Position numbers and translations under genes: made by a program. A model generated the notes under the pieces. That model saw nothing but the letters and a program-made list of their open reading frames with translations, made no database searches and had not been told where the DNA came from. Below are positions 145 to 21,734 of a DNA stretch of 64,000 nucleotides, piece by piece; within the stretch, counting starts at the first letter, position 1, and each line of letters begins with the position of its first letter. Source of the stretch: an uncultured Spirochaetota bacterium (lineage in GTDB: Bacteria; Spirochaetota; Spirochaetia; SZUA-6; Fen-1364); assembly GCA_963733835.1 (NCBI GenBank), contig CAVTER010000004.1, forward strand, positions 43,102 to 107,101. Direction: 5' to 3'.

Positions 145-2763
145 TCACCCGTCGGCGAGCCGGCGCTGCTCCAGGAACGCGGCGAGGAACCGTGCCGTGT
201 GCGACCCGCGCCGTACGCGCGCGACCCGCGCCGGGCTGCCCTCGGCCACGACCCGTGCCGCCCGCCTCTCCGCCCTCGGGCCCCAGGTCGATCACCCAGT
301 CCGCCTCGGCGATGATGTCGAGGTTGTGCTCGACGATCACGACGGTGTTGCCCGCGTCCACCAGCCGGTGCAGGACACGGATGAGCTTCTCCACGTCGGC
401 CATGTGCAGGCCGATCGTCGGCTCGTCGAGCAGGTACAGCGTGCGCGGCCCCCCGGCCCTCGCCCGGGCCAGCTCGGTGACCAGCTTGATCCTCTGCGCC
501 TCCCCGCCGCTCAGCGACGGGCTCTGCTGGCCGAGGGTGATGTACCCCAGGCCGACCGCATCGAGCAGCTCCAGGGCGTGGCGCACGCCGGGGTGAAAAT
601 CGAAGAACCTGGCGGCCTCGTCCACGCTCATGGCCAGGACGTCCGCGACGCTCTTTCCCCGGAAGGTCACCGCCAGCGTCTCCTCGTTGAAGCGCCGTCC
701 CCCGCAGGAGTCGCACGGCACGGTCACGTCGGGCAGGAAGCTCATCTCGATGCGCTTCATGCCCTGGCCGTCGCATTCCTCGCACCGGCCCCCGGCCACG
801 TTGAACGAGAACCGGCTCGCCGTGTACCCGCGCATCCGCGCCTCGGGGGAGGCGGCGAACAGGCGGCGCACGTCGTCCCAGATGCCGACGTAGGTGGCGG
901 GGCACGAGCGCGGCGTCTTGCCGATCGGCGTCTGGTCGACCTCGAGCACCCTGCCCACGGCCTGCCAGCCCTCGATGGCACGGCAGCCGTGCAGACCGCC
1001 CGCGGGGGCCGCCCGGCGGCGCGAGCCGGCCACGAGACGGCGCATGTTCTCGTAGAGGACGTTGCGCACGAGGGTGCTCTTGCCGCTGCCGCTCACACCC
1101 GTCACGCAGACCAGCCTCCGCAGGGGCACCTCGACGTCGAGGTCCTTCAGGTTGTGCAGGGCGGCCCCGCGGATGAGAAGCGACGGCGCGGGAGCCTGCC
1201 CCGGCCCGGGAGGCGTCCGCCCCGCGAGGGGATGGCGCAGCGGCTCGCGGAGGAACTTCGCGGTGAGGGACGCGCGGCTTCGCATGACCTGGGCGATGGT
1301 TCCCTGGGCGACCAGCCGTCCGCCGTTCACCCCGCCGCCCGGGACCGAGGTCCACGATGTGCTCGGCCCTGCGGATGGTTTCCTCGTCGTGCTCCACCAC
1401 GACCACGGTGTTTCCCTTCTGCCGCAGGCTGCGCAGGGTGTCCAGGAGCACGAGGTTGTCGCGCGCGTGCAGGCCGATGGTCGGCTCGTCGAGGATGTAG
1501 CAGACCCCGCGGAGGTTGGATCCGAGCTGCGAGGCCAGGCGGATGCGCTGCGCCTCCCCGCCGCTCAGCGTGGGGGCGGAGCGGTCCAGCGACAGGTACG
1601 AGAGGCCCACCTGTTCGAGGAAGGCGGCCCGGCTGTCGATCTCGGCGACGATGTCCCGGGCGATCTCTTTCTCGCGGCCGTCGAGGGCCAGGCCGCGCAT
1701 CTCGGCCGCCATCCCGGACACCGGGAGCCGTGCGTACTCGGCGATGTTCTTCCCGCGGAATCGCACGGCGAGCGCCTCGGGCCGCAGGCGAAGGCCGCCG
1801 CAGGCGGGGCAGGTCTTCTCGGGCCCCTCCCACCAGTCGTTCCACCAGATCTCCTCGCCCGTCTGCTCCGCGTCGAATCCCGAGAGCTGCTGGCCCGTGC
1901 CGAAGCAGGACGGGCACCAGCCGTGCCGGGAGTTGTACGAGAACAGGCGCGGGTCCAGCTCCTCGAAGCTCCTGCCGCACCGCGGGCAGGCCCGCTTCGT
2001 GGAGAAGGTGATCGTGCCCGTGGCCGTGCGCGACGCGCACCACGCCCCTGCCGAACTCCAGGCCCCTTCCCAGCAGCGCGCGAAGGGCCCGTTCGTTCTC
2101 GGGCCGGGCCGTCACCTCGCCCACGGGCAGCTCGATCGTGTGCTCGCGGAACCGGTCCAGCCGGGGCCACGGCGCCGTGGGGACAGCCTCGCCGTCCACG
2201 CGCAGAGCGTCGAACCCCCTGGCCGCGGCCCAGGCGGCGAGGTCGGTGTAGTACCCCTTGCGCGCCGTGACCAGGGGCGCCAGCACGCCCACGCGCCTGC
2301 CCCGGTAGTCGTGCAGCACGCGGGCGAGGATGCTCTCCGCGGTCTGGGGCGGCGATGGGCACGCCGCAGTCGGGGCAGTGCTGCGTGCCCAGCTTGACGA
2401 ACAGCAGCCGCAGGAACGGGTAGATCTCGGTGAGCGTGGCGACGGTGCTCTTCCTGCCGCCCCGGCTGGTGCGCTGCTCGATGGCCACCGTCGGCGGCAC
2501 GCCGAAGACGCCGTCCACGTCGGGCCGTGCGCCGGCTGCACGAACTGCCGGGCGTAGGCGTTCAGGGACTCGAGGTAGCGACGCTGCCCCTCGGCGAAGA
2601 GGATGTCGAAGGCGAGGGTGCTCTTGCCGCTGCCGCTCACGCCCGGTGATCACGCTGAAGGCGTCGCGGGGGATGCGCAGGTCGATGCCCTTCAGGTTGT
2701 GCTCGCGCGCGCGGCGGATGACGATCTCGCCGCCCGCGCGGGCGGGCCGCCGGCTCGGGGCAC
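145..2763 (-). CDS. uvrA: UvrA-family ABC ATPase, downstream tandem paralog B (excinuclease subunit A-like), with at least 4 frame disruptions
   Basis: Minus-strand ORF fragments 41..1330, 117..1766, 1327..2640 and 1565..2653 together cover a full UvrA: [12 protein letters not shown], Walker A ([12 protein letters not shown]), a CPDCG zinc finger, [14 protein letters not shown] signatures, [12 protein letters not shown] and the C-terminus ...[14 protein letters not shown] with its stop near 145. The frame changes at a G homopolymer near 2655. Confidence 0.7.
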
Positions 2764-2829
2764 CCGCCGGCGCTGCTGCCGGCCCGGCCGCCGTGCGTTG
2801 TCGCGCGCGCGGCGATGCGCCGGAAGGCC

Positions 2830-5553
<2,724 letters not shown>

Positions 5554-5671
5554 CTTTCCCAGCGGGATGGAGAGGGAGAGGTTTTTCAGCTTGTTCTGCC
5601 GGGCCCCCTCGATGCGGATTGCGGCCGCCGGGGGCCGCCGGGCGCGGGGGCGCGGGGAGGAGGGGGTGGGC

Positions 5672-6187
5672 TTAGCGATGCGCGTCCATCCCCCGCGGCG
5701 CGCTCCCGCGTTCCCGCGGCCCCGACAGGAGCTTTTCCATGAACATCGCGCCGGGGAGGGGGTTGTACACGTAGGGCTCGGTGTCCTGGAACCCGAACGA
5801 CCGGTACAGCCGCACGGCCCCCTGCATCGAGGGCAGCGTGTCCAGCCGCATCGCCGTGTACCCCTTTGCGCGGGCCTCCTCCAGGATCCTGCCGATGAGC
5901 TGCCTGCCCACGCCCAGCCCGCGGCCGGACTCCCGCACGAAGAGCCTCTTCATCTCGCAGGTCTGGCCGTCGATCGGCCGCAGGGCAACGCACCCGCACG
6001 GCTCACCGTCCCGTTCCGCGAGGATGAGGGCGCCCCGGGGGGGAGCGTACTTGCCCGGCAGGCTGTCCAGCTCGGCCGCGAAGCCCTGGAAGGCGAGGTC
6101 GATCTCGAGGGAGGCGGCGTACTCTTCGAAAAGCCTCCTCACTGCCGGCAGGTCTGCCTCTCCCGCCGGCCGGTACACGGTCTGCAT
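5672..6187 (-). CDS. GNAT-family N-acetyltransferase
   Basis: An intact 171-aa ORF with the acetyl-CoA binding motif R/Q-x-x-G-x-G/A (RGLGVGRQL) and a GNAT-like layout. Confidence 0.75.
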
Positions 6188-8888: not shown

Positions 8889-10635
8889 TCAGTCCCGCTC
8901 CAGCCCCTGCTGCCTCCACAGCGTGTAGTACAGCCCCTTCTTCCGCAGCAGGTCGAGGTGGGAGCCCATCTCGACAACCCGGCCCTTCTTGAGGACCACG
9001 ATCCTGTCCGCGCGGGCGACGGTGGACAGCCTGTGGGCGATGAGCACGGTCACGAAGCTGGGCCGCGTGCGGATGATCTGGTCGATCGTGCGCGTGATCT
9101 CCTTCTCCGTCTCCGTGTCCAGGGAGCTGGTGGCCTCGTCGAAGATGAGCAGGTCGGGCCTGCGCAGGAGCGCGCGCGCGATGGCCAGGCGCTGCCTTTC
9201 CCCGCCGGAGAGCTTCAGTCCCCCCTCGCCGATCCGCGTGTCCAGGCCCTCCCTGCTGCGCTCGAGCAGCCCGGCCAGCTGCGCCGCGCGCAGGCTGGCC
9301 AGGCACTCCTCGTCGTCGGCGTCGGCCCGGGCGAAGCGCAGGTTGTCGCGGATGGTCCCCGCGAACAGCTCGATGGCCTGGGGCACGAAGCCCACGCGCC
9401 GGCGAAGCAGGTCGTAGTTCACCGCGGAGGAGTCTATTCCAGTTGAAGAGAATGCGCCCCGCGTCGGGCGTGTACAGGCCAAGGAGCAGCTTCACCAGGG
9501 TGCTCTTCCCCGCCCCCGAGGGCCCCACGAAGGCGATGCTTTCCCCCGACCGGGCCGCGAAGGACACCTCCTGGAGGGCGGGCTCGCGCGCGCCGGGGTG
9601 CCGGTAGCTCACGCCCGAGAACTCCAGGCTCTCGATCCCGTCGGGCACCGCGCCGGAAGGATTGGCGGGAGCCGTCTCCTGCGCGAGGATGCGCTCGACG
9701 TTCTCGAGGCTCGCGCGCGTCTCCTGGTACTTCGTGATGATGCTGCCGATCTCGCCCAGCGGCGAGAAGATCGCGAAGGAGTAGAACATCATGCTGAGGA
9801 ACTCGCCCAGCGTGATGAGCCGCAGGTACACCAGCACGAGCATCAGCAGGAGCAGCAGCGCCCGGAAGAAGTTGATGGCCGTGCCCTGGAAGAACATGAG
9901 CAGGCGCACCGTCTTCACCTTGGACAGCTCCAGGTCGAGGATGCGGGTGTTCGTCGCGTTGAGCCTGTCGATTTCCTGCGTCTCCAGCCCCAGGCTCTTT
10001 ATCAGCTCGATGTTGCGAAGGCTTTCCGTGGTGGAGCCGGCCAGGGCGTTGGTCTCGCCGAAGATCCGGGCCTGCACCTTCTTGATCCTGCGGCCGAGGG
10101 ACGAGACCAGGACGCCGAGGACCGGGGAGAGCACGAGCAGGGCGGCGCCGATGGACCAGTGCACGAAGAAGGAGTAGCCCAGGACGAGCACGAAGGCGAG
10201 CGAGGAGATGAAGATGGAGTTGATGGCCTGGCCGATCATGTCCCGGGAGTCGCTCCTCGCCTTCTGCAGCTGCTGCAGCACCGCGCCGCTCTGCTGGTCC
10301 TCGAATGCCCGGTAGGGCAGGCGCAGGGAGTGGGCGATGCCGTCGGCGTACATCCTGGCGCCGACGGACTGGGAGGCGACGTTCACGAAGTAGTCCTGGA
10401 AGTTCTTCGCGACGCGGCTCACCATGGCAACGCCGACGAAGGCGAGGATGAGAAGCCCGACCCCGCGGATGAACTCGGCGCGGGGCATCGAGGCAAAGTT
10501 CGTGGCGTAGCGGTCGACGATGATGCGGAAGATCTGCGGGTCCAGGAGGGAGAAGACCTGGTTGACGACCGCCAGGCCGATCGCGAGGGCGATCATTCCC
10601 CGGTAGGGACGCAGGTAGGCGAGCAGGAGCTTCAT
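8889..10635 (-). CDS. ABC exporter with fused permease and ATPase (MsbA/lipid-A exporter-like); one frameshift near 9440
   Basis: The N-terminal six-TM domain (MKLLLAYLRPYRGMIALAIGL...) is followed by an NBD: Walker A GPSGAGKST in one frame, then the rest (LSGGERQRLAIARAL, LIFDEATSSLD, AHRLST) in the 8889..9482 frame. Confidence 0.75.
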
Positions 10636-10646
10636 GGGTGAAGATA

Positions 10647-11591
10647 CTACACGTGGTTGCGCAGGGCGAGCTCCACGGGGTGGGGGTGCAGCCACACCTG
10701 GCGCGACAGGTAGGGCTCGGCGAACCTGCGCACGTGGTGGCGCAGCAGCACGAGCGGCACGACCAGGGGCACATGGCCCGCGTGGTAGTCGCCAATCACC
10801 TCGAGCAGCTCCGCCTTCTCGTCGGCGGCGAGCTGCTTCTTGAAGTAGCCCATGGCGTGCTGCAGGACGTTCACGTTCTTCTTCGGCGTGGCCTCGAGGC
10901 TGAGCGCGCGCATGAGACCGGCCAGGTACTCGCCGAGGACCGCCGTCCGCGGCCTGCCCTTCGCCGAGGCGACGAGCGCGCCCAGCGCAGAGACGGCCCG
11001 CGGGTCGTGCGACATGACGAGGAGCTTATGGTCGGTGTGAAAGCCGACAAGCCCCCGGATGCTGCCATCCGCCTGCTCGAAGTCCCTCCAGCGCCGGTAG
11101 ACGAACACCCTCTCGATGAAGTTCTCGCGCAGGCCCGGGTCGTTCAGCCGGCCGTCGTCCTCCACGGGCAGGAGGGGGAAGCGTCCCGTGAAGGCCCGGG
11201 CAAACAGGCCCACGCCCCTCCGCGACGGGCTTCCCTTCTCATCGTAGACCTTCACGGCCCTGAGGCCCGAGCTGGGCGAGGCGCTCTTGAAGACGAAGCC
11301 GCACAGGTCCTCGGCGGCCAGCGCGGCCAGGCGGCTCTCGCTCCAGCGGCGCATGCGCTGCGTGTGGTCGATCCCCGTCTTCGCGGTCACCAGCCGGGGC
11401 TCGGCGGGGTCGCCCACCAGGCGCATGGACTCCCGGGGCACGCCCAGCCCGCACTCGACCTCGGGACAGACGGGCACCCACTCGACGAACCTTCCCAGCG
11501 TGTCGTGCAGGTACCTGTCCAGCTTGTGCCCGCCGTTGTAGCGGACGTTCTGCCCGAGAAGACACGAGCTGATTCCCAGCCTGATTGCCAT
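10647..11591 (-). CDS. DUF523 (TudS-like) plus DUF1722 two-domain protein
   Basis: An intact 314-aa ORF. The N-terminus is MAIRLGISSCLLGQNVRYNGGHK with a CPEVECGLGVPRE Cys cluster, which fits DUF523. The C-terminal half resembles DUF1722 (YbgA-like). Confidence 0.6.
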   Translation of the reverse strand: MAIRLGISSCLLGQNVRYNGGHKLDRYLHDTLGRFVEWVPVCPEVECGLGVPRESMRLVGDPAEPRLVTAKTGIDHTQRMRRWSESRLAALAAEDLCGFVFKSASPSSGLRAVKVYDEKGSPSRRGVGLFARAFTGRFPLLPVEDDGRLNDPGLRENFIERVFVYRRWRDFEQADGSIRGLVGFHTDHKLLVMSHDPRAVSALGALVASAKGRPRTAVLGEYLAGLMRALSLEATPKKNVNVLQHAMGYFKKQLAADEKAELLEVIGDYHAGHVPLVVPLVLLRHHVRRFAEPYLSRQVWLHPHPVELALRNHV

Positions 11592-11645
11592 TGCCAGCCT
11601 CCCCCTGCGGTGATTCTACCGCAGGCCGCATCCGTGGTATAAGCG

Positions 11646-12524
11646 GTGCACCCGGAGGTCCCCGTGCACGATGAGTTCACCGAGGTGAAGATCCTCGACA
11701 ATTTCTACCAGACGTCCAGCTTCTTCCCCATGCCCGTGGTGCTCGTCTCGAGCGTCTCGGAGTCGGGGAGGACCAATCTCGGCCCCTATTCCCTGTGCTT
11801 TCCCCACATCGTGGCCGGCCGCCACTCCATGATGCTCATCGCGCGCGACACGAGCAACACGGCGCGGAACATCGCCGCGCGCAGGCACTGCGCCCTGAAC
11901 TTCATCCCGCACCGACGGCGGTACCTGAAGAACTGCGTGACCCTCGGCTTTCCCGGCGAGACGACGGAGGAGAAGATGAAGAACAGCATCTTCACCCTCG
12001 AGCCGTCGCGGCGCACGGACGATGGCGGTGCGCGGTTTCCCGAGATCGTGCGCGAGGCCGTCCAGGTGTTCGAGTGCACGTGGGACGATGCCTTCCCGCT
12101 CACGTACTTCGAGGGAGACCAGGAGCGGCGGTTCGTGCTGCGCATCGAGAAGATCCACCTGAAACCCCGGCTGCGGACGGCCCTGCTGCAGGGGACCTGC
12201 GCGCCGGACCTGCCCATCGACTACGGCTTTCGCGACAACGCGCGCTTCTGGCTGGCCCGGCACGGCAGGCCGTACTCCGAGCTGATCCCGCGCTCCAAGG
12301 GCGTGTCCGTCGACGCGGTGAAGTACGCCGTGCAGCGTGTGGACCCCGGGGTGACGTGGCAGGAGGAGGCCTGCGCGAAGCTCGTGCGGGTGCCCCGGCC
12401 GTTCATGACGGCCGCGATCCGCGCCTGCGTGGAGGCGGCGGCGAAGGAGGGGGTCACGGAGATCACCCCCGCGTTCGTGGACAGGGTCAGGGACAAGCGC
12501 AGGGGAGAGAAGCCGAGCAGATAA
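11646..12524 (+). CDS. Flavin reductase-like (FMN-binding split-barrel) domain protein with a C-terminal extension; the start may be the GTG at 11664
   Basis: A 292-aa ORF. PMPVVLVSSVSESGRTNLGPYSLCFP resembles the flavin-reductase-like domain. GGAGG lies 5 nt before the GTG at 11664. Confidence 0.5.
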   Translation: MHPEVPVHDEFTEVKILDNFYQTSSFFPMPVVLVSSVSESGRTNLGPYSLCFPHIVAGRHSMMLIARDTSNTARNIAARRHCALNFIPHRRRYLKNCVTLGFPGETTEEKMKNSIFTLEPSRRTDDGGARFPEIVREAVQVFECTWDDAFPLTYFEGDQERRFVLRIEKIHLKPRLRTALLQGTCAPDLPIDYGFRDNARFWLARHGRPYSELIPRSKGVSVDAVKYAVQRVDPGVTWQEEACAKLVRVPRPFMTAAIRACVEAAAKEGVTEITPAFVDRVRDKRRGEKPSR

Positions 12525-12610
12525 TCCGGGGCGCGTCGGCTTGCTTGACGCGCCCCCGGGCGGCGTGATGAACTGCACGCATCATGCCATCCCACCAGCG
12601 CCACGGGCGC

Positions 12611-13264
12611 ATGTCCTCCATCACTTCCGTCATCTTCGACTTCGGCGGCGTGCTGGGCCTGCACCAGGACCCCGCCCAGGCACGGGTCCTGGCAGACCTG
12701 TGCGGCCTTCCCATGGACCGCTTCCGCACCCTGTACGCGAAGGACAGGCTGATGTGGGACAGGTCGACCGTGGACGCGGCAGGGTACTGGGGCAGCATCC
12801 TTGCCGCGGCGGGCCGCCCCGTTTCAGCCGACCTTGTCGGCCGGCTGGTTCGCGCCGACATCGCCGCGTGGACACGGGTCAACGCGCGCGTGGTCGCCTG
12901 GGCCGCGGCCCTGCGCAGGAAGGGCTTCCGCACGGCCATCCTTTCGAACATGCCGCAGGAGATCCTGGACGACATGTGGAAGGACCCGCGCCTCCAGTGG
13001 ATGGCCGAGTTCCCCGTGCGGGTCTTCTCCTGCGAGGTCCGCCTGGTGAAGCCCGAGCCGGAGATCTACCGCCTGTGCCTGGACTCCCTCGGCGTGCAGG
13101 CGTCCGAGGCGATCTTCGTCGACGACACGATCCATAACGTCGAGGGCGCGCAGGCGGTGGGGATACAGGCCCTGCTCTTCCTGACCGCCCCGGAGGCTGC
13201 CGTGGAGATCGAGAGGCGCTGGGGACTGCCCGTGGACGAGCTGGAGGGCGACGGGAATGGGTGA
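12611..13264 (+). CDS. HAD-family hydrolase (haloacid dehalogenase-like phosphatase)
   Basis: MSSITSVIFDFGGVL carries the DxG motif I. The sequence also has the SN motif and the FVDD motif IV. Confidence 0.75.
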   Translation: MSSITSVIFDFGGVLGLHQDPAQARVLADLCGLPMDRFRTLYAKDRLMWDRSTVDAAGYWGSILAAAGRPVSADLVGRLVRADIAAWTRVNARVVAWAAALRRKGFRTAILSNMPQEILDDMWKDPRLQWMAEFPVRVFSCEVRLVKPEPEIYRLCLDSLGVQASEAIFVDDTIHNVEGAQAVGIQALLFLTAPEAAVEIERRWGLPVDELEGDGNG

Positions 13265-15053
13265 GGCCCCGCGAGCAGCCGCACCCGGGGTCACCTTCAG
13301 CATGCGCCTGAAGATCACCCTCACGTTCCTGGTCATCGGGTCCCTCGCGAGTCTCCTGCTCGCCGCCGGCACATTCACGATCCTGCAGCGCAGCATGTTC
13401 GGCGAGCTGCAGAACAGGGTGGGCGGTCTTGCCCGGGTCGCCGCGCAGCTCGTCGATCCAGAGGCATGCCGGCGCCTGGTCGCCCGTCTGCGGCCCGGCA
13501 TGTCCGACGACGGGGTCCGTGAGGCGGAAGACTCGGCGGACTTCCTGTCCGTCTCCGAGGCGCTGAACGCCGTCCGGGCCACCGAGGAGCGCCTCGTCCA
13601 CTACATCTACCTTTTCGCGCCAACCCCCGACGCGGAGACGGCGCTCTTCGTCGTCGACGCGGACCTGCTCGCCGACCGCGCGCGCGCCGAGGCCGGCGAG
13701 CTGTCCGCCGATGAGCTGACGCGCTTCGGGTCGGCCTTCGATCTCTCGGACTTTCCCGTCGCGAGGAGGGCCATCGCCGAGAAGGTCCCGCTGGTGGAGC
13801 AGGGCTACACCTGGGACGAGGCCTACGGGGTGAACTCCCTCACCGGATACGCCCCTGTCTTCGGCAGGGACGGCACGACCCTTCTCGGGGTTCTCGGGAT
13901 CGACATGGTGGACAGCGACGTGCGCGCCGTGCTGCGCCGCGCGAGGATCGTCACGGGGGCGGTGGTGGGCGGCGCTCTGCTGCTCACGATCCTGGCATCC
14001 ATCGTCATGGGGTCGCTGTTCACCCGGGGCATCGTGTCGCTGGACACCGTCGTGCGCAGGTTCGGCCAGGAGAACCTCGAGGTGCGGGCCGTGGTCCGTT
14101 CGCGCGACGAGGTCGGCCGTCTGGGCCTGAGCTTCAATGCCATGGCCGAGACCATCCAGGGCTACAGCAGGCGGCTGGAGGACCTGCTGGGAGCGTACGG
14201 CAGGTTCGTGCCGCACGAGCTGCTGCGCCTGCTGTCCAAGGAGAGCATCGTCGATCTGCAGCTGGGGGACCATGTCCAGCGGGACATGACGGTGATGTTC
14301 TCGGACATCCGCTCCTTCACCGCGCTCTCCGAGTCGATGACGCCGTTCGAGACCTTCAACTTCCTCAACTCCTATCTCAAGCGCATGGGGCCCGAGATCC
14401 GCAGGAACAACGGGTTCATCGACAAGTACATCGGCGATGCGATCATGGCGCTGTTCCCCCGCTGCGCCGACGACGGCCTCGCGGCAGCCGTCGCGATGCA
14501 GCAGAGGCTTGCCGAGTACAACGGGCACAGGAAGTCCAGCGGGTACCGGCCCATCTCCATCGGCATCGGCGTGCACTCGGGCACCCTCATGCTGGGAACC
14601 GTGGGCGAGCACGAGCGGATGGACGGCTCGGTGATCGCCGACGCGGTCAACCTGGCCTCGCGGCTGGAGGCGCTCACGCGTCTGTACGGCGCCGCCATCC
14701 TCACGACCGGTCGGACTCTCAAGTCGCTGAGGGCAACCGGCAGGTTCGCCTGCCGCTTCATCGACAGGGTGCAGGTGAAGGGCAGGGAAGGGACTGTCCT
14801 GCTCTTCGAGGTCCTCGACGGCTGCCCCCCCGCGGAGAGGGAGATGAAGCTTTCCAGTCGCGAGGAGCTCGCCCGCGGGCTGCGTTCCTACTACGGCCGC
14901 AGGTTCGCGGAGGCCCTCGCGATCTTCGAAACGCTGCGCGCCCGCAATCCCTCCGACGAGGTTGTGCGCATCTTCCAGAACCGAACCAAGGTGCTCGCCG
15001 GGGTTGGCGCCCCGCCGGACTGGCGAGGAGTGGAGCTGATCGAGGCAAAGTAG
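13257..15053 (+). CDS. Membrane-anchored class III adenylate/guanylate cyclase with a periplasmic sensor domain and HAMP
   Basis: An intact 598-aa ORF: one TM helix, a periplasmic region of about 200 aa, a second TM, a HAMP-like region, then the cyclase catalytic domain (MFSDIRSFTAL, YIGDAIMALF, GIGVHSG). Confidence 0.8.
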   Translation: MGEAPRAAAPGVTFSMRLKITLTFLVIGSLASLLLAAGTFTILQRSMFGELQNRVGGLARVAAQLVDPEACRRLVARLRPGMSDDGVREAEDSADFLSVSEALNAVRATEERLVHYIYLFAPTPDAETALFVVDADLLADRARAEAGELSADELTRFGSAFDLSDFPVARRAIAEKVPLVEQGYTWDEAYGVNSLTGYAPVFGRDGTTLLGVLGIDMVDSDVRAVLRRARIVTGAVVGGALLLTILASIVMGSLFTRGIVSLDTVVRRFGQENLEVRAVVRSRDEVGRLGLSFNAMAETIQGYSRRLEDLLGAYGRFVPHELLRLLSKESIVDLQLGDHVQRDMTVMFSDIRSFTALSESMTPFETFNFLNSYLKRMGPEIRRNNGFIDKYIGDAIMALFPRCADDGLAAAVAMQQRLAEYNGHRKSSGYRPISIGIGVHSGTLMLGTVGEHERMDGSVIADAVNLASRLEALTRLYGAAILTTGRTLKSLRATGRFACRFIDRVQVKGREGTVLLFEVLDGCPPAEREMKLSSREELARGLRSYYGRRFAEALAIFETLRARNPSDEVVRIFQNRTKVLAGVGAPPDWRGVELIEAK

Positions 15054-15087
15054 CGCGGGCTTCGCACATGCTAGCGCAGTTGATGTA

Positions 15088-15146
15088 TTGACACTTTTGT
15101 CACGAAATGGTAGCTTTTGAATCGTGAATTATATCACCATTCACTT
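15088..15146 (+). promoter_or_regulatory. AT-rich promoter/operator island upstream of the hydrogenase operon
   Basis: A -35 TTGACA (15088-15093), 17-nt spacer, and an extended -10 TGgTAGCTT (15108-15116). The palindrome TGACA-N4-TGTCA overlaps the -35, and the inverted repeat GTGAA-N11-TTCAC lies at 15124-15145. Confidence 0.5.
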
Positions 15147-15161
15147 CTTGGGGGAGACAGC

Positions 15162-15676
15162 ATGAGCACAGCACTTCAGAAGCGTCCAATCGACGAGGTG
15201 ATTGCGAGCCACCCGCCCAACCGGGACCACCTGATCTCCATCCTGCAGGAGGTCCAGGGCGAGTATGGCTACCTCTCCCGCGACAGCATCAACAGGATCT
15301 CCGACTACCTGAAGCTGCCCTCGTCGAAGGTCTTCGGCGTGGCCACCTTCTACAACCAGTTCAAGCTGACCGCGCCGGGGAAGATCCAGATCCAGATCTG
15401 CCGGGGAACGGCCTGCCACGTGAAGGGATCGCTCAACCTGCTGGACGCCCTGATCACCGCGCTGGGCATCGAGGTCGGCCAGACGACCAGGGACGGGCTG
15501 TTCTCGCTCGAGACGGTCGCGTGCCTCGGGTGCTGCTCCATCGCTCCCGCGATGATGGTGAACGGGAGGTTCTTCGGCCGGCTCGACAAGAAGCAGGTCG
15601 AGGAGCTGGTCGACAAGTTCCGCGCCGCGGGCGGGGTCGACGGCGCTTCCGGGCCGAGGCCGGGGGGTGGAGGCAT
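15162..15676 (+). CDS. hydC: NuoE-like [2Fe-2S] subunit of an NADH-dependent [FeFe]-hydrogenase (HydC/HndA-like); no stop seen before the downstream HydB-like sequence
   Basis: MSTALQKRPIDEV...QICRGTACHVKGS...CLGCCSIAPAMMVNGRFFG is the NuoE/24-kDa 2Fe-2S motif. Upstream are a GGGGAGA RBS and an AT-rich promoter. A Gly-rich linker (GGVDGASGPRPGGGG) runs directly into the next domain in the same frame. Confidence 0.7.
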
Positions 15677-17512
15677 GAACAAGGTCTTCATCGGCATGGG
15701 CACCTGCGGCCTGGCCACCGGCGCGGGCGAGGTGAAGACGGCGGTCGAGAAGTGGGCGGCCGCGCGGCAACGTGGCGCGTGCAGATCACCCCGACGGGCT
15801 GCATCGGCTACTGCAAGGCCGAGCCGATCATGGACGTGGTGACCGACACGGGCCACCGGGTCTCCTACGGCAACGTCACTCCCGAGGTGGCCAGCTTCAT
15901 CCTGGACGAGGTGTTCGTGCGCAGGAACACTGAAGCTCGACGGCCTGCTGGGCCAGTTCAGGAACGGCAAGGCGCCGCTCGCCGGGCATCCCCCTGATCG
16001 ACGAGCACCCCTACTTCCGCAAGCAGGTGAAGTACGTGCTGCGCAACTGCGGGGTCATCAACCCCGAGTCCATCGCCGACTACCGCGCGCACGGCGGGTT
16101 CAAGGGCCTGGAGCGTGCGCTGCACCATGACCAGCGCCGAGGTGATCGCCGAGATCACGAAGTCGGGCCTGCGCGGCCGCGGCGGCGGCGGGTTCTCCGC
16201 CGGCAAGAAGTGGGAGTTCGCCCTGGCCTCGAAGAGCGAGAAGAAGTACGTGATCTGCAACGCCGACGAGGGCGACCCCGGGGCCTTCATGGACCGCTCC
16301 ATCCTCGAGGGCGACCCCTTCTCCGTGCTCGAGGGCATGATCATCGCCGGCTACGCCATCGGCGCCAACGAGGGCATCATCTACTGCCGCGCCGAGTATC
16401 CCCTCGCCATCGAGCGGCTCAGGAAGGCCATCGGCGTCGCTGAAGGCGGAGGGGCTTCTCGAGAAGCCGCGTCGGTCCGAGCGGGCTTCCAGTTCACCCT
16501 GCGGGTGAAGAAGGGCGCCGGCGCGTTCGTCTGCGGCGAGGAGACCGCGCTGATGGCCTCGGTCGAGGGCCGGCGCGGCATGCCCCGGCCCCGGCCGCCG
16601 TTCCCCGCCGTGTCGGGCCTGTTCCAGAAGCCCACGATCATCAACAACGTGGAGACCTTCGCCAACGTGCTCGCACATCCTGCGCGAGGGGGCCGCGCGC
16701 CTTCGCGGCCATGGGCACCGCAGAGCCGCAAGGGCACGAAGGTCTTCGCCCTCACCGGCAAGGTGATGAACACCGGCCTGGTCGAGGTGCCCATGGGCAT
16801 CACCCTGCGCGAGATCGTCTTCGACATCGGCGGCGGCATCCCCGACGGCAAGGCCTTCAAGGCCGTGCAGATCGGCGGTCCCTCGGGCGGCTGCATCCCG
16901 GCCGAGCACCTGGACACGAAGATCGACTACGAGTCGCTGAAGTCCGTCGGCGCCATGATGGGCTCGGGCGGCCTCGTGGTGATGGACGAGGACACCTGCA
17001 TGGTGGACGTGGCCCGCTACTTCCTGCGGCTTCATCACCACCGAGATCCTGCGGCAAGTGCATCCCCTGCCGCGAGGGCACGCAGCGGCTGTACGAGATC
17101 CTCGACTCCATCGTCTCGCCCTACTCGCAAGATGAAGAGCGAGGAGGACAACCTCCTGCGCTTCAACCGGGTGCTGAACATGGAGAGCCTGGCGCAGGTG
17201 ATCAAGGACACCTCGCTGTGCGGCCTGGGCCAGACGGCGCCCAACCCCGTGCTGTCCACCCTGCGGTACTTCCGCGAGGAGTACGAGGCGCACATCTACG
17301 ACCGGAAGTGCCCGGCCCACCAGTGCAAGGGCCTGCTGACCTACGAGATCGACACCGACGCCTGCACGGGGTGCACGCTGTGCGCGAAGAAGTGCCCCAC
17401 GCAGGCCATCGTGGGCGAGAAGAAGAAGGCCCACTACATCGTGGACGAGAAGTGCATCCGCTGCGGCATCTGCCGCGACGTGTGCCGCTTCAACGCGGTG
17501 ACGGTGAGCTGA
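15677..17512 (+). CDS. hydB: NuoF-like flavoprotein subunit of an [FeFe]-hydrogenase (HydB/HndC-like) with an N-terminal thioredoxin-like [2Fe-2S] domain; at least 4 frame disruptions
   Basis: The pieces are MNKVFIGMGTCGL...ITPTGCIGYCKAEP (Trx-like ferredoxin), then RNCGVINPESIADYRAHGGFKGLERAL, then ORF 16115..17512 with GRGGGGFSAGKKWE, the FMN/NADH motifs CNADEGDPGAF and GAGAFVCGEETALMAS, ESCGKCIPCREG (after a shift), and C-terminal 2x[4Fe-4S] CxxCxxCxxxCP. Confidence 0.75.
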
Positions 17513-17525
17513 GGAGGCGACATCG

Positions 17526-19256
17526 ATGGTGAACCTGACGATCAACGACCGGAAGACCCTGCAGGCCGCCCCCGGGACGACGATCCTGGACGCGGCGACC
17601 GCCGCGGGCGAGCGAGATCCCCACCCTGTGCCACATCAAGGAGCTGTTCCCGAGCGGCGCCTGCCGCATGTGCGTGGTGGAGTGCAAGGGGCAGCCCGGC
17701 CTCATCCCCTCCTGCGCCTTCCCGGTCGAGGAGGGCATGGAGGTCGCAGACGCGCAGCCCGCGGGTCGTCGAACGCCCGCCGCACGATCATCCAGCTCCT
17801 GCTCGCGAGCCACCCCTTCGACTGCCTCACCTGCGCCGAAGAACGGCTACTGCGAGCTGCAGTCCCTGGCCTCGGAGTACGGCATCGACAGGGTGCCCTT
17901 CGAGGGCAAGACCCGCCACCACTACACCGACTTCTCCTCCCCCTCCATCATCCGCGAGCCGGACAAGTGCATCCTCTGCGGCCGCTGCGTGCGCATCTGC
18001 GAGGAGATCCAGGGCGTGGCGGCCATCGACTTCACCCGGCGCGGCTTCGACACCATGGTGCTGCCGCCCTTCGAGATGGACCTGAGCGAGACCACCTGCG
18101 TCAACTGCGGCCAGTGCACGCTCGCCTGCCCGACCGGCGCGCTGCACGAGGTGCGCGCCGTCGAGAAGGTGATCCAGGTGCTGCAGGAGGGCAAGAAGTA
18201 CGTCGTGGCCCAGGCCGCCCCCGCGATCCGCGTGTCGCTGGGCGACTTCTTCGGGCTGGCCCCCGGCGCCAACGTGACAGGCAAGGTCGCCGCGGCGCCT
18301 GCGGCGCATGGGCTTCCGCCAGGTCTTCGACACCGACTTCGCCGCCGACCTCACGATCATGGAGGAGGGCACGGAGCTGGTGCGCAGGATCACGGAGGGC
18401 GAAGAAGCTTCCGCTGTTCACCTCCTGCTGCCCTGCCTGGATCAAGTTCGCCGAGCACTACTACCCCGAGCTGCTCGCGAACATCTCCACCTGCAAGAGC
18501 CCGCAGGAGATGATGGGCGCCACCATCAAGAGTTACCTCGCGAAGAAGATGTCGATCGACCCGCGCGACATCTACGTGGTGTCGGTGATGCCCTGCACGG
18601 CCAAGAAGTACGAGGCGCTGCGGCCCGAGCTGTCGAAGGACGGCGTCACGGACGTGGACGCGGTGCTCACCACCCGCCAGTTCAACAGGATGATGCAGAT
18701 CTTCGGCATCACCTTCGAGAGCCTCCCCGAGGAGGAGTTCGACAAGCCCTTCGGCGCGCCCACGGGGTCGGGCGACATCTTCGCCGCCTCCGGCGGGGTC
18801 ATGGAGTCGGCCCTGCGCTCGGCCTACTACCTGCTCACGGGCAAGGACCTGGAGAAGCTGGACTTCGAGGCCGTGCGCGGCATGGCCGGGGTGAAGGAGG
18901 CCAGCGTGAAGGTGGGCGACCGCACCATCCGCGTTGCCATCGCCAACCGCCTGTCCAACGCACGGCAGATCGCCGACAGGGTGCGCGCGGGGGACTCGCC
19001 CTGGGAGTTCATCGAGGTCATGGCCTGCCCCGGCGGCTGCGCCGGCGGCGGCGGCCAGATGTACGGCTACGACCCGCAGAGGACCGAGCAGAGGATCAAG
19101 GCGATCTACGCCCTGGAGAAGAGCAGGTCGGTGCGCCAGTCGTACAAGAACCCGGCAGTCGCCTCCGTGTACAAGGAGTACTTCGGCGAGCCGGGCTCGC
19201 ACACGGCGCACGAGCTCCTGCACACGAGCTACGAGTCACGGCCCCAGAAGGGCTGA
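17526..19256 (+). CDS. hydA: [FeFe]-hydrogenase catalytic subunit (HydA/HndD), about 3 frame disruptions
   Basis: An N-terminal 2Fe-2S/4Fe-4S ferredoxin region is followed by H-cluster motifs L1 (TSCCPAW), L2 (MPCTAKKYE) and L3 (EVMACPGGCAGGGGQ) in the 17526..19256 frame. Parts of the N-terminus sit in frames 17668..18513 and 18308..19369. Confidence 0.8.
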   Translation: MVNLTINDRKTLQAAPGTTILDAATAAGERDPHPVPHQGAVPERRLPHVRGGVQGAARPHPLLRLPGRGGHGGRRRAARGSSNARRTIIQLLLASHPFDCLTCAEERLLRAAVPGLGVRHRQGALRGQDPPPLHRLLLPLHHPRAGQVHPLRPLRAHLRGDPGRGGHRLHPARLRHHGAAALRDGPERDHLRQLRPVHARLPDRRAARGARRREGDPGAAGGQEVRRGPGRPRDPRVAGRLLRAGPRRQRDRQGRRGACGAWASARSSTPTSPPTSRSWRRARSWCAGSRRAKKLPLFTSCCPAWIKFAEHYYPELLANISTCKSPQEMMGATIKSYLAKKMSIDPRDIYVVSVMPCTAKKYEALRPELSKDGVTDVDAVLTTRQFNRMMQIFGITFESLPEEEFDKPFGAPTGSGDIFAASGGVMESALRSAYYLLTGKDLEKLDFEAVRGMAGVKEASVKVGDRTIRVAIANRLSNARQIADRVRAGDSPWEFIEVMACPGGCAGGGGQMYGYDPQRTEQRIKAIYALEKSRSVRQSYKNPAVASVYKEYFGEPGSHTAHELLHTSYESRPQKG

Positions 19257-19284
19257 GGGAGGGGAGGACCCCGGGGGACGGGCC

Positions 19285-21352
19285 ATGGTGTCGGTCTACA
19301 CGGTCAGCGACACGTGCAAGAAGTGCTACTCGTGCGTGCGGTCCTGCCCGACAAAGGCCATCCAGGTGAAGGGCGGGCAGGCCGAGATCATCGAGGAGTT
19401 CTGCATCTCCTGCGGGTGGTGCGTGACCGCCTGCTCGCAGGGGGCCAAGCGCGTGCGCTCCTCCCTCGACCAGGTGCGCGCGCTGCTGGCGGGGGCCGGC
19501 AGCACCTACGCGCTGCTCGCACCCTCGTTCCCCGCGGCGTTCCTCGACACCCCGCCGCGCCAGCTTGTGGGCGCGCTGCGCGCTGTGGGCTTCGCCGGCG
19601 TGTTCGAGGTGGCATTCGGGGCCGACCTCGTCTCGTACGAGTACTACCGGCGGTTCCGCGCCATCGTGGAACGCTCCCCCGACGACTTCCTCATCTCCTC
19701 GCCCTGCCCCTCCGTGGTGCAGTACGTGGAGAAGATGGTGCCCGAGCTGGCCGGCCATCTCGCCCCCGTGGTCTCGCCCATGGAGGCCACGGCCCGGATG
19801 GTGAGGAGCAGGGTCGACCCGCGGGCGCAGCTCGTGTTCATCGGCCCCTGCGTGGCGAAAAAAGTCGAGGGGGACGGCGCTTCCGGCGCCTCGGGCGCTT
19901 CCGGCGCCGGTGTGGATGCCGTGCTGACCTTCGAGGAGCTGGTGGAGCTGTTCGCCGCGGCGGGGGTGGCACCCCCCCAGGCGGCGCCTGCCGACTTCAA
20001 CCCCCCGCACGCGAACCTCGGCAGGATCTACCCGGTCACCGGCGGGCTGCTCAAGGCAGCCTCGATCGACGCGGACATCCTCGAGAGCCCCGTCTACGTC
20101 GTGGAAGGGCCCGAGAGGGTGATGGACATGCTGCACGTGCTGTCCAACCGGGTGCGCACAGGCCAGAGGGTGAGCTACAGGCTGTTCGACCTCCTGTTCT
20201 GCGAGGGGTGCATCGGCGGCCCCTCGATGGTGAACGACCTCACCTTCTACGAGCGCAAGAAGTACGTGGTGCAGTACATGCATCACCAGCCCATGGCCCG
20301 CGACATCGAGGAGTGGGCCGAGGAACACGCCGAGTACCTCGACATCGACCTGTCCACGCGCTTCCACCCCGTGACGCGCGAGGAGGTGGCCGCCCCCGAG
20401 GAGGAGATCCGCAGGATCCTCTCCCAGACGGGAAAGCTCACCCCCGAGGACGAGCTGAACTGCGGTGCCTGCGGCTACCCCTCCTGCAGGGACAAGGCCC
20501 TCGCCGTGTACAGGGGCAAGGCCGAGGTGGAGATGTGCCTGCCCGTACCTCATCGCCCGGGTGGAGTCGGCGATGAAGGACCTCACGGCGAACCAGACCC
20601 GGCTCATCCAGGCGGAGAAGCTCGCCTCGATGGGCCAGATGGCGGCGGGGATCGCCCACGAGATCAACAACCCCCTCGGCGTCGTGCTCATGTACTCTCA
20701 CCTGCTGAAGGACGAGCTTCCCGAGGGCGCCCCGGGCAGGGCCGACGCGGACAGGATCATCGCGGAGGCCGAGCGCACGCAGAAGATCGTGCGCGGGATC
20801 CTGAACTTCGCGCGCGAGGAAAAGGTCGAGCGCAGGCCCACCGACATCAATGCGCTTCTCCGTGACAGCGTGACCGGGATCGCGGGAACTTCACAGAACG
20901 GGAAAATCCGTGTAGAGTGGGCTCTCGACGAACGCCTCGCCCCGCAGAACGTGGATGCGGGGCAGCTGCGCCAGGTCTTCGACAACATCGTGAAGAACGC
21001 GCGGGAGGCCATGCCCGACGGCGGGACGCTCCGCGTGTCGACGGAGGACGGGGAGGGGGAGTTCACGGTCCGCGTCGCGGACTCGGGTCCCGGCATCCCG
21101 GAGGAGAACCTGCCCAAGATGTTCTCTCCCTTCTTCACGACGAAGAAGGTGGGCAAGGGCACGGGCCTGGGCCTGTCCGTGTGCTACGGCATCGTGAAGA
21201 TGCACGGCGGGACCATCCAGGCCTCGAACAACCCCGAGGGCGGCGCGTGCTTCACCGTGCGCATCCGCCGCGTCGTTTCCGCGGCCAACGGGAAGGCGGC
21301 GCAGGCGGCAGTTTCGAAGGAGGACGGACGTGGCTCGAGTACTGATCGTTGA
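19285..21352 (+). CDS. Sensor histidine kinase whose input is a sensory [FeFe]-hydrogenase-like (HydS-type) domain: 2x[4Fe-4S] ferredoxin, degenerate H-domain, Cys4 cluster, HisKA and HATPase; one frameshift near 20540
   Basis: [22 protein letters not shown]...[11 protein letters not shown] is a 2x4Fe-4S region. Degenerate H-cluster motifs follow: ISSPCPSVV (versus TSCCPxW), [21 protein letters not shown]. There is a [12 protein letters not shown] linker and CGACGYPSC. After the frameshift come HisKA ([12 protein letters not shown]) and HATPase_c ([20 protein letters not shown]) in ORF 20465..21352. Confidence 0.75.
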
Positions 21353-21734
21353 CGACGACGCGGACCTCATCGCGGGGCAGCGGGCGTTCCTGGAATCAAG
21401 CGGCTACACCGTCGAGTCTGCCAACTCGATCGACGAGGGCCTCGCCCGGGCGAGCGAGTTCGCCCCCGACCTCATCCTGGCGGACCTCATGATGGAGCAC
21501 TACGACTCGGGATTCGTGTTCTGCAAGAAGGTGCGCGACCTCCCCGGGCTGGCGACGGTTCCCATCATCATGCAGACAGCCGCCCCCCGCAAGATCGGCT
21601 TCACCTTCGAGGGAAGCGCGGCACCGGGGCGGGAGTGGATGAAGGTGGACGAGGTGCTCACCAAGCCCGTTCCCCTCGAGCACCTGGTGGGCAAGATCGA
21701 GCAGCACCTGTCGGGCAAGGCCCGCCGTGCGTAG
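21330..21734 (+). CDS. Single-domain CheY-like response regulator
   Basis: [13 protein letters not shown]...DLILADLMME...TKP. Its start overlaps the end of the upstream kinase. Confidence 0.8.
   Translation: MARVLIVDDDADLIAGQRAFLESSGYTVESANSIDEGLARASEFAPDLILADLMMEHYDSGFVFCKKVRDLPGLATVPIIMQTAAPRKIGFTFEGSAAPGREWMKVDEVLTKPVPLEHLVGKIEQHLSGKARRA

Follow-up and report, generated by a model that had tools for sequence, protein, structure and literature searches.

An apparent HydC-HydB fusion in a spirochaete [FeFe] hydrogenase operon most probably arises from clustered single-base insertions

The stretch of DNA analysed here, which we call the window, comprises 64,000 nucleotides of an uncultured Spirochaetota bacterium (GenBank assembly GCA_963733835.1, contig CAVTER010000004.1, positions 43,102 to 107,101). 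Between 15162 and 17512 it carries the NuoE-like (HydC) and NuoF-like (HydB) subunits of an [FeFe] hydrogenase, which a sequence-only reading had described as running into each other without a stop, either as a fused HydC-HydB protein or as an artefact of a lost stop codon. We consider it very likely that the apparent fusion is a local artefact of sequence or consensus quality, and that hydC and hydB are separate genes. The most economical reading of the phase error at the junction would be that a single spurious base has been inserted somewhere in 15654-15667, which would put the hydC stop codon out of frame and the hydB start codon in frame and so create the appearance of a fusion. This base would be the first of about 22 single-base insertions, spread over 15.65-18.40 kb, that also shred hydB and hydA, and the two genes would be coupled through an ATGA stop/start overlap, as they are in near relatives.

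The hydC-hydB junction

Read from the ATG at 15162, the start of the NuoE-like gene, the frame continues without a stop into MNKVFIGMGTCG, whose ATG lies at 15675, and is first closed at 15842; its translation, MSTALQKRPIDEV...ELVDKFRAAGGVDGASGPRPGGGGMNKVFIGMGTCGLATGAGEVKTAVEKWAAARQRGACRS..., includes ...ELVDKFRAAGGVDGASGPRPGGGGMNKVFIGMGTCG.... Translation thus confirms that no stop separates the NuoE-like part from the Trx-like/NuoF-like part in this frame, and also the coordinates that had been given, 17512 being the final base of the HydB stop. Such a stop-free reading is unremarkable, because the GC content is about 69% throughout the window. Between 15770 and 16115 the continuation of the second protein switches among all three frames, and the open reading frame at 16115-17512 carries the Pfam domains Complex1_51K, NADH_4Fe-4S and two copies of Fer4.

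The first gene, hydC (15162..15678, plus strand), encodes a NuoE-like [2Fe-2S] subunit, assigned from PF01257, NF005722 and its homologues. The PF01257 domain (2Fe-2S_thioredx, NuoE) is complete, with residues 10-153 covering profile positions 1-144 of 145 at 168.5 bits, and the protein passes the NCBIfam NuoE model NF005722 (146 bits against a cut-off of 141). It is 84-88% identical over the full length, and 89-94% by local BLASTP, to stand-alone proteins of 179-185 aa. A search with the NuoE part extended by the initial 32 residues of the following protein yielded, as the 120 best homologues listed, only proteins that stand alone; they measure 158-185 aa and align with the NuoE part and no further, and several are named as from Spirochaetia. 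The comparison with homologues that the sequence-only reading had proposed therefore finds the fusion in none of the 120 best matches, and only in more distant lineages. A NuoE-like gene lies directly upstream of hydB in about 74 of 84 loci, as a separate open reading frame in all but one. The best match in a scan of one genome per species, the metagenome-assembled genome (MAG) L005 of an uncultured Spirochaetota bacterium (77%), also has a 4-nt overlap. Two exact-pattern scans of metagenome contigs for a near-identical junction, one with the 44-nt hydB start and one with a degenerate GGGGTSGAGGCATGAACAAGG... pattern, returned no match.

In independent contigs of five relatives (L001, L002, L003, L005 and L085) the NuoE-like frame ends in the TGA of an ATGA, and the called genes overlap by 4 nt; the fusion is absent from these five and from a sixth relative, L004. 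Translationally coupled subunits usually have such an ATGA stop/start overlap. The same ATGA stands in the window at 15675..15678 on the plus strand (hydB ATG 15675-15677, hydC TGA 15676-15678), and it is in register in the five relatives. The surrounding pattern, ...GGC/GA ATGA AC/GC AAGG..., is common to all seven close sequences, the window included, and an identical GGCATGAACAAGG is kept in the window, where the upstream phase alone is shifted, by +1. The claim of a HydC-HydB fusion consequently finds no support in the close relatives, which have two overlapping genes, or in the ATGA that the window itself retains. Of the fallback offered with it, the artefact is favoured by the evidence and the lost stop is not, the TGA being present at 15676-15678, out of frame.

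The discrepancy falls in the variable Gly/Ala/Ser-rich C-terminal tail of HydC (15639..15674, plus strand), where the +1 phase was recognised from the tail lengths of L001-L003. The NuoE frame is certain through GGVDGASG (to 15653), all four DNA differences from the GGVEGASG of L002 lying at third codon positions, and the final hydC codons, G-V-E-A-TGA, lie in the +1 frame and match the endings ...GGVEA (L085) and ...ARGVEA (L004), each followed by its stop. When tail regions were compared (window 15631-15674; L001 6480-6558; L002 1240-1304; L003 1570-1649), the window's tail was 41 nt shorter than those of L001 and L003 and 23 nt shorter than that of L002. These differences are what in-frame deletions of 42 and 24 nt would leave if one surplus base were added, so that the hydC stop is present but out of phase. 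Alignments to L002 and L004 locate the surplus base to the interval 15654-15667 and not more finely, because the low-complexity tail aligns ambiguously, and one inserted base and two missing bases in the tail would give an identical phase. A run of six G residues (15662-15667) lies inside this interval, 8 nt upstream of the ATGA. Discounting one surplus base within about 15654-15667 would put the true end of hydC at the TGA at 15676-15678, and one possible corrected product is a protein of 171 aa ending in ...GASGPRPGVEA, with some uncertainty in its exact tail residues. Over the last 17 nt the sole difference between the window and L004 (GTG versus GTC) leaves the amino acid unchanged when read in the TGA frame and alters it in the ATG frame, a hint in favour of the former.

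Across its spirochaete clade HydC ends in a hypervariable tail rich in Gly, Ala, Ser and Glu; the tail adds 0-24 aa, for total protein lengths of 161-185 aa, and is composed of imperfect GGCGCTTCGGGCGCC-like repeats. The closest homologues have short Gly/Ala/Ser/Glu tails ending in ...GAQA or ...GAKA, and others end in ...GGVEA or ...GRVEE.

Single-base insertions across hydB and hydA

Gap lists against L001-L004, a context table and frame segmentation delimit an insertion-dense zone at 15654..18407, to which no strand is assigned. About 22 surplus single bases fall within some 2.75 kb, at a mean spacing of 131 nt and with no net deletions. From 15768 to about 18403, 20 uncompensated single-base insertions are seen besides the junction: 14 in hydB, one between the genes and five in hydA. 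The gap lists place those of hydB (plus strand) at 15768, 15776, 15929, 15986, 16122, 16440, 16470, 16482, 16669, 16701, 16719, 17030, 17047 and 17128, and the intergenic one at 17517, again with no strand. Those of hydA (plus strand) are at 17614, 17745, 17771, 17835 and 18296, with a sixth at about 18400-18407 that follows from the frame; here the gap lists were combined with a frame path obtained by tblastn against the HydA proteins of L006, L010, L011 and L017. The sequence-only reading had estimated that at least five frame changes were needed, a valid lower bound for what proves to be 14 insertions in hydB and one phase error at the junction.

For 20 insertions the exact base could be mapped; of these, 18 are C or G, and 16 do not extend a homopolymer. 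The first demonstrable one downstream of the junction begins 92 nt past the hydB ATG, and upstream of the junction, over 9996-15640, the gap lists against L001, L002, L003 and L004 contain compensated gap pairs only. Between insertions the homology to L001 runs on in alternate frames, as in AIGV/KAEGLLEKP/VGP/GFQFTL against AIGVMKAEGLLEKPVGPKGFQFTL of L001. Nine of the 14 hydB insertions are hidden within the long open reading frame at 16115-17512, because groups of three restore the frame, and deletion of the three bases of such a group recovers a peptide nearly identical to that of L001.

The threes lie within 100 nt or less at 16440/16470/16482, 16669/16701/16719, 17030/17047/17128 and 17745/17771/17835, with a looser set at 15768/15776/15929, and most grouped insertions are a C placed after a G. 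We considered whether a triple could be one divergent extra codon split by the aligner and excluded this, since the alternate-frame homology to L001 persists. Isolated surplus bases relative to the relatives also occur outside the dense zones, at 9441, 15147 and 22046; that at 15147 lies in the hydC 5' leader and adjoins the GGGGGAGA ribosome-binding site.

The damage is not confined to the hydrogenase. When the whole window was segmented with a codon-position hidden Markov model, frame segments were very short in two zones, one at 15770-18397 and one on the minus strand at 2029-5085. The latter falls within two tandem UvrA-like genes broken into many frame segments (271-5680, minus strand). 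Thirteen of these segments, from 5680 down to 2642, stitch together into a match to positions 2-924 of 924 of the UvrA profile TIGR00630 (930 bits). Since uvrA is broken in this second zone, the damage is not specific to the hydrogenase.

The corrected operon

Deletion of the 14 surplus bases of hydB (15675..17512, plus strand) gives an uninterrupted protein of 607 aa, a flavoprotein of the NuoF type that begins with a Trx-like [2Fe-2S] domain and ends in a 2x[4Fe-4S] domain. It is 92.5% identical to the HydB of L001 over 521 aa, gap-free, and its dN/dS is 0.16, with values of 0.20-0.32 in the intact flanking genes. The corrected protein matches PF01512 (154.7 bits), PF10589 (99.8 bits) and Fer4_21 (37.5 bits); the SLBB domain PF10531 reaches 23.0 bits, under the 27-bit cut-off, and its region falls within the alignments to solved B subunits, which run end to end (9bov_B, 8oh5_B, 9n5u_B, 7t2r_B and 7q4v_B). 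The structures aligned over the full length include HydB, NfnB and NiFe-HydB chains.

Deletion of six bases likewise converts hydA (17526..19256, plus strand) into a catalytic subunit of 574 aa with all H-cluster motifs, TSCCPAW, MPCTAKK and EVMACPGGCAGGGGQ, the Cys motif set also including MACPGGCAGGGGQ. Its domains are Fer2_4, NADH-G_4Fe-4S_3, Fer4_7, Fe_hyd_lg_C (317.5 bits) and Fe_hyd_SSU, and it passes the NCBIfam model NF040763 (817.6 bits against a cut-off of 765). Judged from these sequences, the genes at 15162-19256 form a canonical hydC-hydB-hydA operon encoding a trimeric [FeFe] hydrogenase of the bifurcating, NuoE/NuoF (Bfu/HydABC) type in a Spirochaetota-like genome. Profiles and structural alignments agree in this with the domain calls made earlier (a NuoE-like HydC, a Trx-like plus NuoF-like HydB and a hydrogenase of the trimeric bifurcating type). 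Once corrected, the organism appears to have a complete and selectively maintained HydABC-type hydrogenase beside a hydrogenase-like sensor kinase, which is ordinary for anaerobic spirochaetes.

Alternative explanations of the junction

The insertions, the conserved ATGA, the intact open reading frames obtained on correction and the purifying selection acting on them were all observed directly. We infer that the phase error at the junction, at whichever base, shares the artefactual origin of these insertions. Its position, at the upstream end of about 21 spurious 1-nt insertions, speaks against a fusion. It would be the first of the series, because the series has a mean spacing of 131 nt and its first demonstrable member follows some 100 nt downstream. 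The insertion-only spectrum, the intact corrected reading frames under purifying selection and the parallel damage to uvrA, a housekeeping repair gene, together point to a consensus-quality artefact and not to decay. Metagenome assemblies that are error-prone or built from long reads are subject to local bursts of 1-nt indels, which interrupt otherwise conserved genes. The window resembles such assemblies in its bursts of 1-nt indels in conserved genes, a likeness extended by L004, which is likewise insertion-only at other sites. It differs from typical indel artefacts in that its errors lie mostly off homopolymers, are all insertions and are gathered in two zones rather than evenly spread.

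The relative L004 (ENA ERZ25039462 contig_13353) needs separate consideration. It is the closest at the DNA level, at 87% over 10.7 kb, its contig name is of a long-read style, and it has scattered single-base insertions of its own, about one per 700 nt, insertion-only and at positions other than those of the window. One of these, in the hydC tail (within 10429-10520), probably cuts the annotated NuoE protein P0007 to 158 aa. We read the tail phase of L004 as the effect of one surplus base of its own, an A set within a run of G, because removal of that A gives ...RAAGGEAPRSAEARGVEA followed by a stop, ending at the ATGA. Since its insertions include one in the hydC tail, L004 was not used as the sole reference and was combined with L001, L002, L003 and L085. 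Insertions of this kind would also mean that artefactual HydC and HydB fragments from this lineage are present in public protein sets.

Several points weigh against an artefact at the junction. The error there is deduced by comparison and not seen directly in reads, and the length of the hydC tail is hypervariable, so that comparison alone leaves room for a real frameshift in it. The hydC body (15162-15653) is free of insertions, and the dense zone must therefore start right at the tail. The tail of L004 is as long as that of the window (58 nt, from CGC to TGA), and the NuoE body of L004 is also in the ATG frame, ended there by an early TGA. Either an independent extra base has entered both tails, of about 45 nt, or the phase is real in a sub-clade of the window and L004; we estimate the chance that L004 would have an extra base within its tail, at its own error rate, at roughly 6-8%. 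Finally, natural HydC-HydB fusions do occur in another lineage.

These points bear most on a genuine +1 frameshift in a dispensable Gly-rich tail, which would yield a single HydC-linker-HydB protein and leave the other breaks as sequencing errors. The reading frame is continuous in the sequence as given, the Gly-rich linker is plausibly flexible, L004 shares the tail length and phase, fused HydC-HydB frames recur in Evtepia-like Clostridia (L080, P0121-P0126 and P0138), and NuoE-NuoF fusions of the HoxF type are established (PMC3189943, PMC2216082). We nevertheless regard this account as improbable. The 120 nearest homologues include no fused protein, and five relatives have separate genes with the ATGA; the window's ATG and overlapping TGA are unchanged, while the natural fusion of L080 has neither stop nor Met at its junction; about 100 nt separate the phase error from the start of the downstream series, 20 demonstrable spurious insertions spaced 131 nt apart on average; and the single informative substitution relative to L004 is synonymous in the TGA frame. 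A more specific form, in which the +1 phase of the hydC tail is real and maybe common to the L004 lineage (an early TGA rescuing a separate HydC there), so that the spirochaete would express a fused HydC-HydB diaphorase module, seems to us slightly more doubtful still. It would represent a second independent origin besides that in Evtepia-like Clostridia, caught just after arising with the ATGA still intact. A real fusion would in any case be a minor architectural variant, NuoE-NuoF fusions being already known from HoxF, the Nyctotherus ovalis polyprotein and the Evtepia-like HydCB.

Decay of the whole operon into a pseudogene cluster, in which all the frame breaks including that at the junction would be real mutations, we hold to be very unlikely. 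It could draw on the density of damage in one operon, where about 22 changes disrupt the frame within 2.75 kb, beside intact neighbours at 11646-15053. All these changes, however, are +1 insertions with no deletion among them, whereas bacterial gene decay is deletion-biased. Corrected HydB has no in-frame stop or gap against L001 at 92.5% identity, and its dN/dS of 0.16 indicates that selection has not been relaxed; the catalytic motifs of HydA are all intact, uvrA is similarly damaged in the second zone, and the related L004 shows insertion-only defects at other positions. We take the dN/dS, the insertion-only spectrum and the parallel uvrA damage as grounds for rejecting pseudogenisation. 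Recoding, by ribosome or RNA polymerase slippage at the G6 run (15662-15667) to give separate or fused products, deserves almost no credence: the run lies 8 nt upstream of the ATGA and G runs occur there in L004 and L085 too, but a conserved slippery heptamer is lacking, the ATGA persists in relatives whose different tails have no G run, and the other 20 insertions lie mostly outside homopolymers in a pattern that needs no recoding.

With an artefact preferred, the value of the observation is mainly one of quality control. At least two zones, at 15.65-18.4 kb and probably likewise at 2.0-5.1 kb, contain a single-base insertion about every 130 nt, and fusions, truncations or pseudogenes within them should be distrusted until the sequence is polished.

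Relation to known hydrogenases and natural fusions

Electron-bifurcating [FeFe] hydrogenases of the HydABC type (BfuABC family) are known from Thermotoga maritima (7p5h), Acetobacterium woodii (7q4v) and Thermoanaerobacter kivui (8a6t) (PMC9304861, PMC9499530, PMC10021017), and hydrogenase subunit content has been described in PMC6288185. As the family is defined, BfuC is a NuoE-like thioredoxin-like [2Fe-2S] protein (IPR002023/PF01257), BfuB/HydB has a Nuo51 FMN domain, an SLBB domain (IPR019554), a NuoF 4Fe-4S region and C-terminal ferredoxin-type 4Fe-4S domains, and BfuA/HydA has 2Fe-2S and 4Fe-4S ferredoxin domains and an H-cluster domain with Cys motifs (PMC9304861). The window has three matching subunits in the order hydC-hydB-hydA: its HydC is a NuoE-like [2Fe-2S] protein, with a short variable Gly/Ala/Ser/Glu tail typical of its spirochaete clade, its HydB combines a Trx-like N-terminus, an FMN domain, a NuoF 4Fe-4S region and a C-terminal 2x[4Fe-4S] domain, and its HydA passes NF040763 and shows the H-cluster motifs. 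With the insertions taken out, no clear architectural difference is left, and bifurcation may be predicted for the window from its genes alone.

Natural NuoE-NuoF fusions include HoxF of the NAD+-reducing [NiFe] hydrogenase of Ralstonia eutropha and the hydrogenase polyprotein of Nyctotherus ovalis (PMC3189943, PMC2216082). In both a NuoE-like module stands N-terminal to a NuoF-like one in a single polypeptide, the architecture that the sequence-only reading had proposed here. Those fusions are conserved in their clades and have no internal stop/start, whereas the window keeps the two-gene ATGA and its near relatives are unfused. Closer in kind is the single HydC-HydB open reading frame of 746 aa at 6506-8746 of L080 (DWYQ01000188.1, a MAG of Candidatus Evtepia excrementipullorum). 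In Evtepia-like Oscillospiraceae the junction, ...RKLRQRESGEGIRILVGQGSCG, contains neither a Met nor a stop and is spanned by clusters P0121-P0126 and P0138; the fusion recurs in several independent assemblies and is apparently genuine. It places a NuoE-like domain before the Trx-like N-terminus of HydB in an operon of the same type as the window's, but in a different phylum, the fused proteins being 43% identical to the window's HydC. Unlike the natural fusion of L080, the window still has the inter-gene stop/start signal at its junction. A further arrangement is seen in L087 (126-2366), where NuoE and Trx-like parts share one protein of 302 aa and the NuoF core, of 394 aa, is a separate protein after it.

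Genomic neighbourhood

Immediately downstream of hydA lies a gene for a hydrogenase-like sensor histidine kinase (19285..21352, plus strand; Fer4, Fe_hyd_lg_C, FeS, HisKA and HATPase_c), which forms a single open reading frame of 688 aa only once an extra G at 20545 is removed; in L004 FeS and HisKA are found in a single product. This kinase may resemble the kinase-linked sensory group C [FeFe] hydrogenases. A response-regulator gene follows at 21330-21734. Upstream, the neighbouring genes at 11646-15053 are intact, and the gene order in L001 is that of the window: flavin reductase, HAD hydrolase, HAMP-guanylate cyclase, NuoE-like and NuoF-like. Compared with L001 and L004, the conserved block spans 11646-21734 and comprises flavin reductase, HAD hydrolase, HAMP-guanylate cyclase, hydC, hydB, hydA, the sensor kinase and the response regulator, which suggests that signalling genes flank the hydrogenase on both sides.

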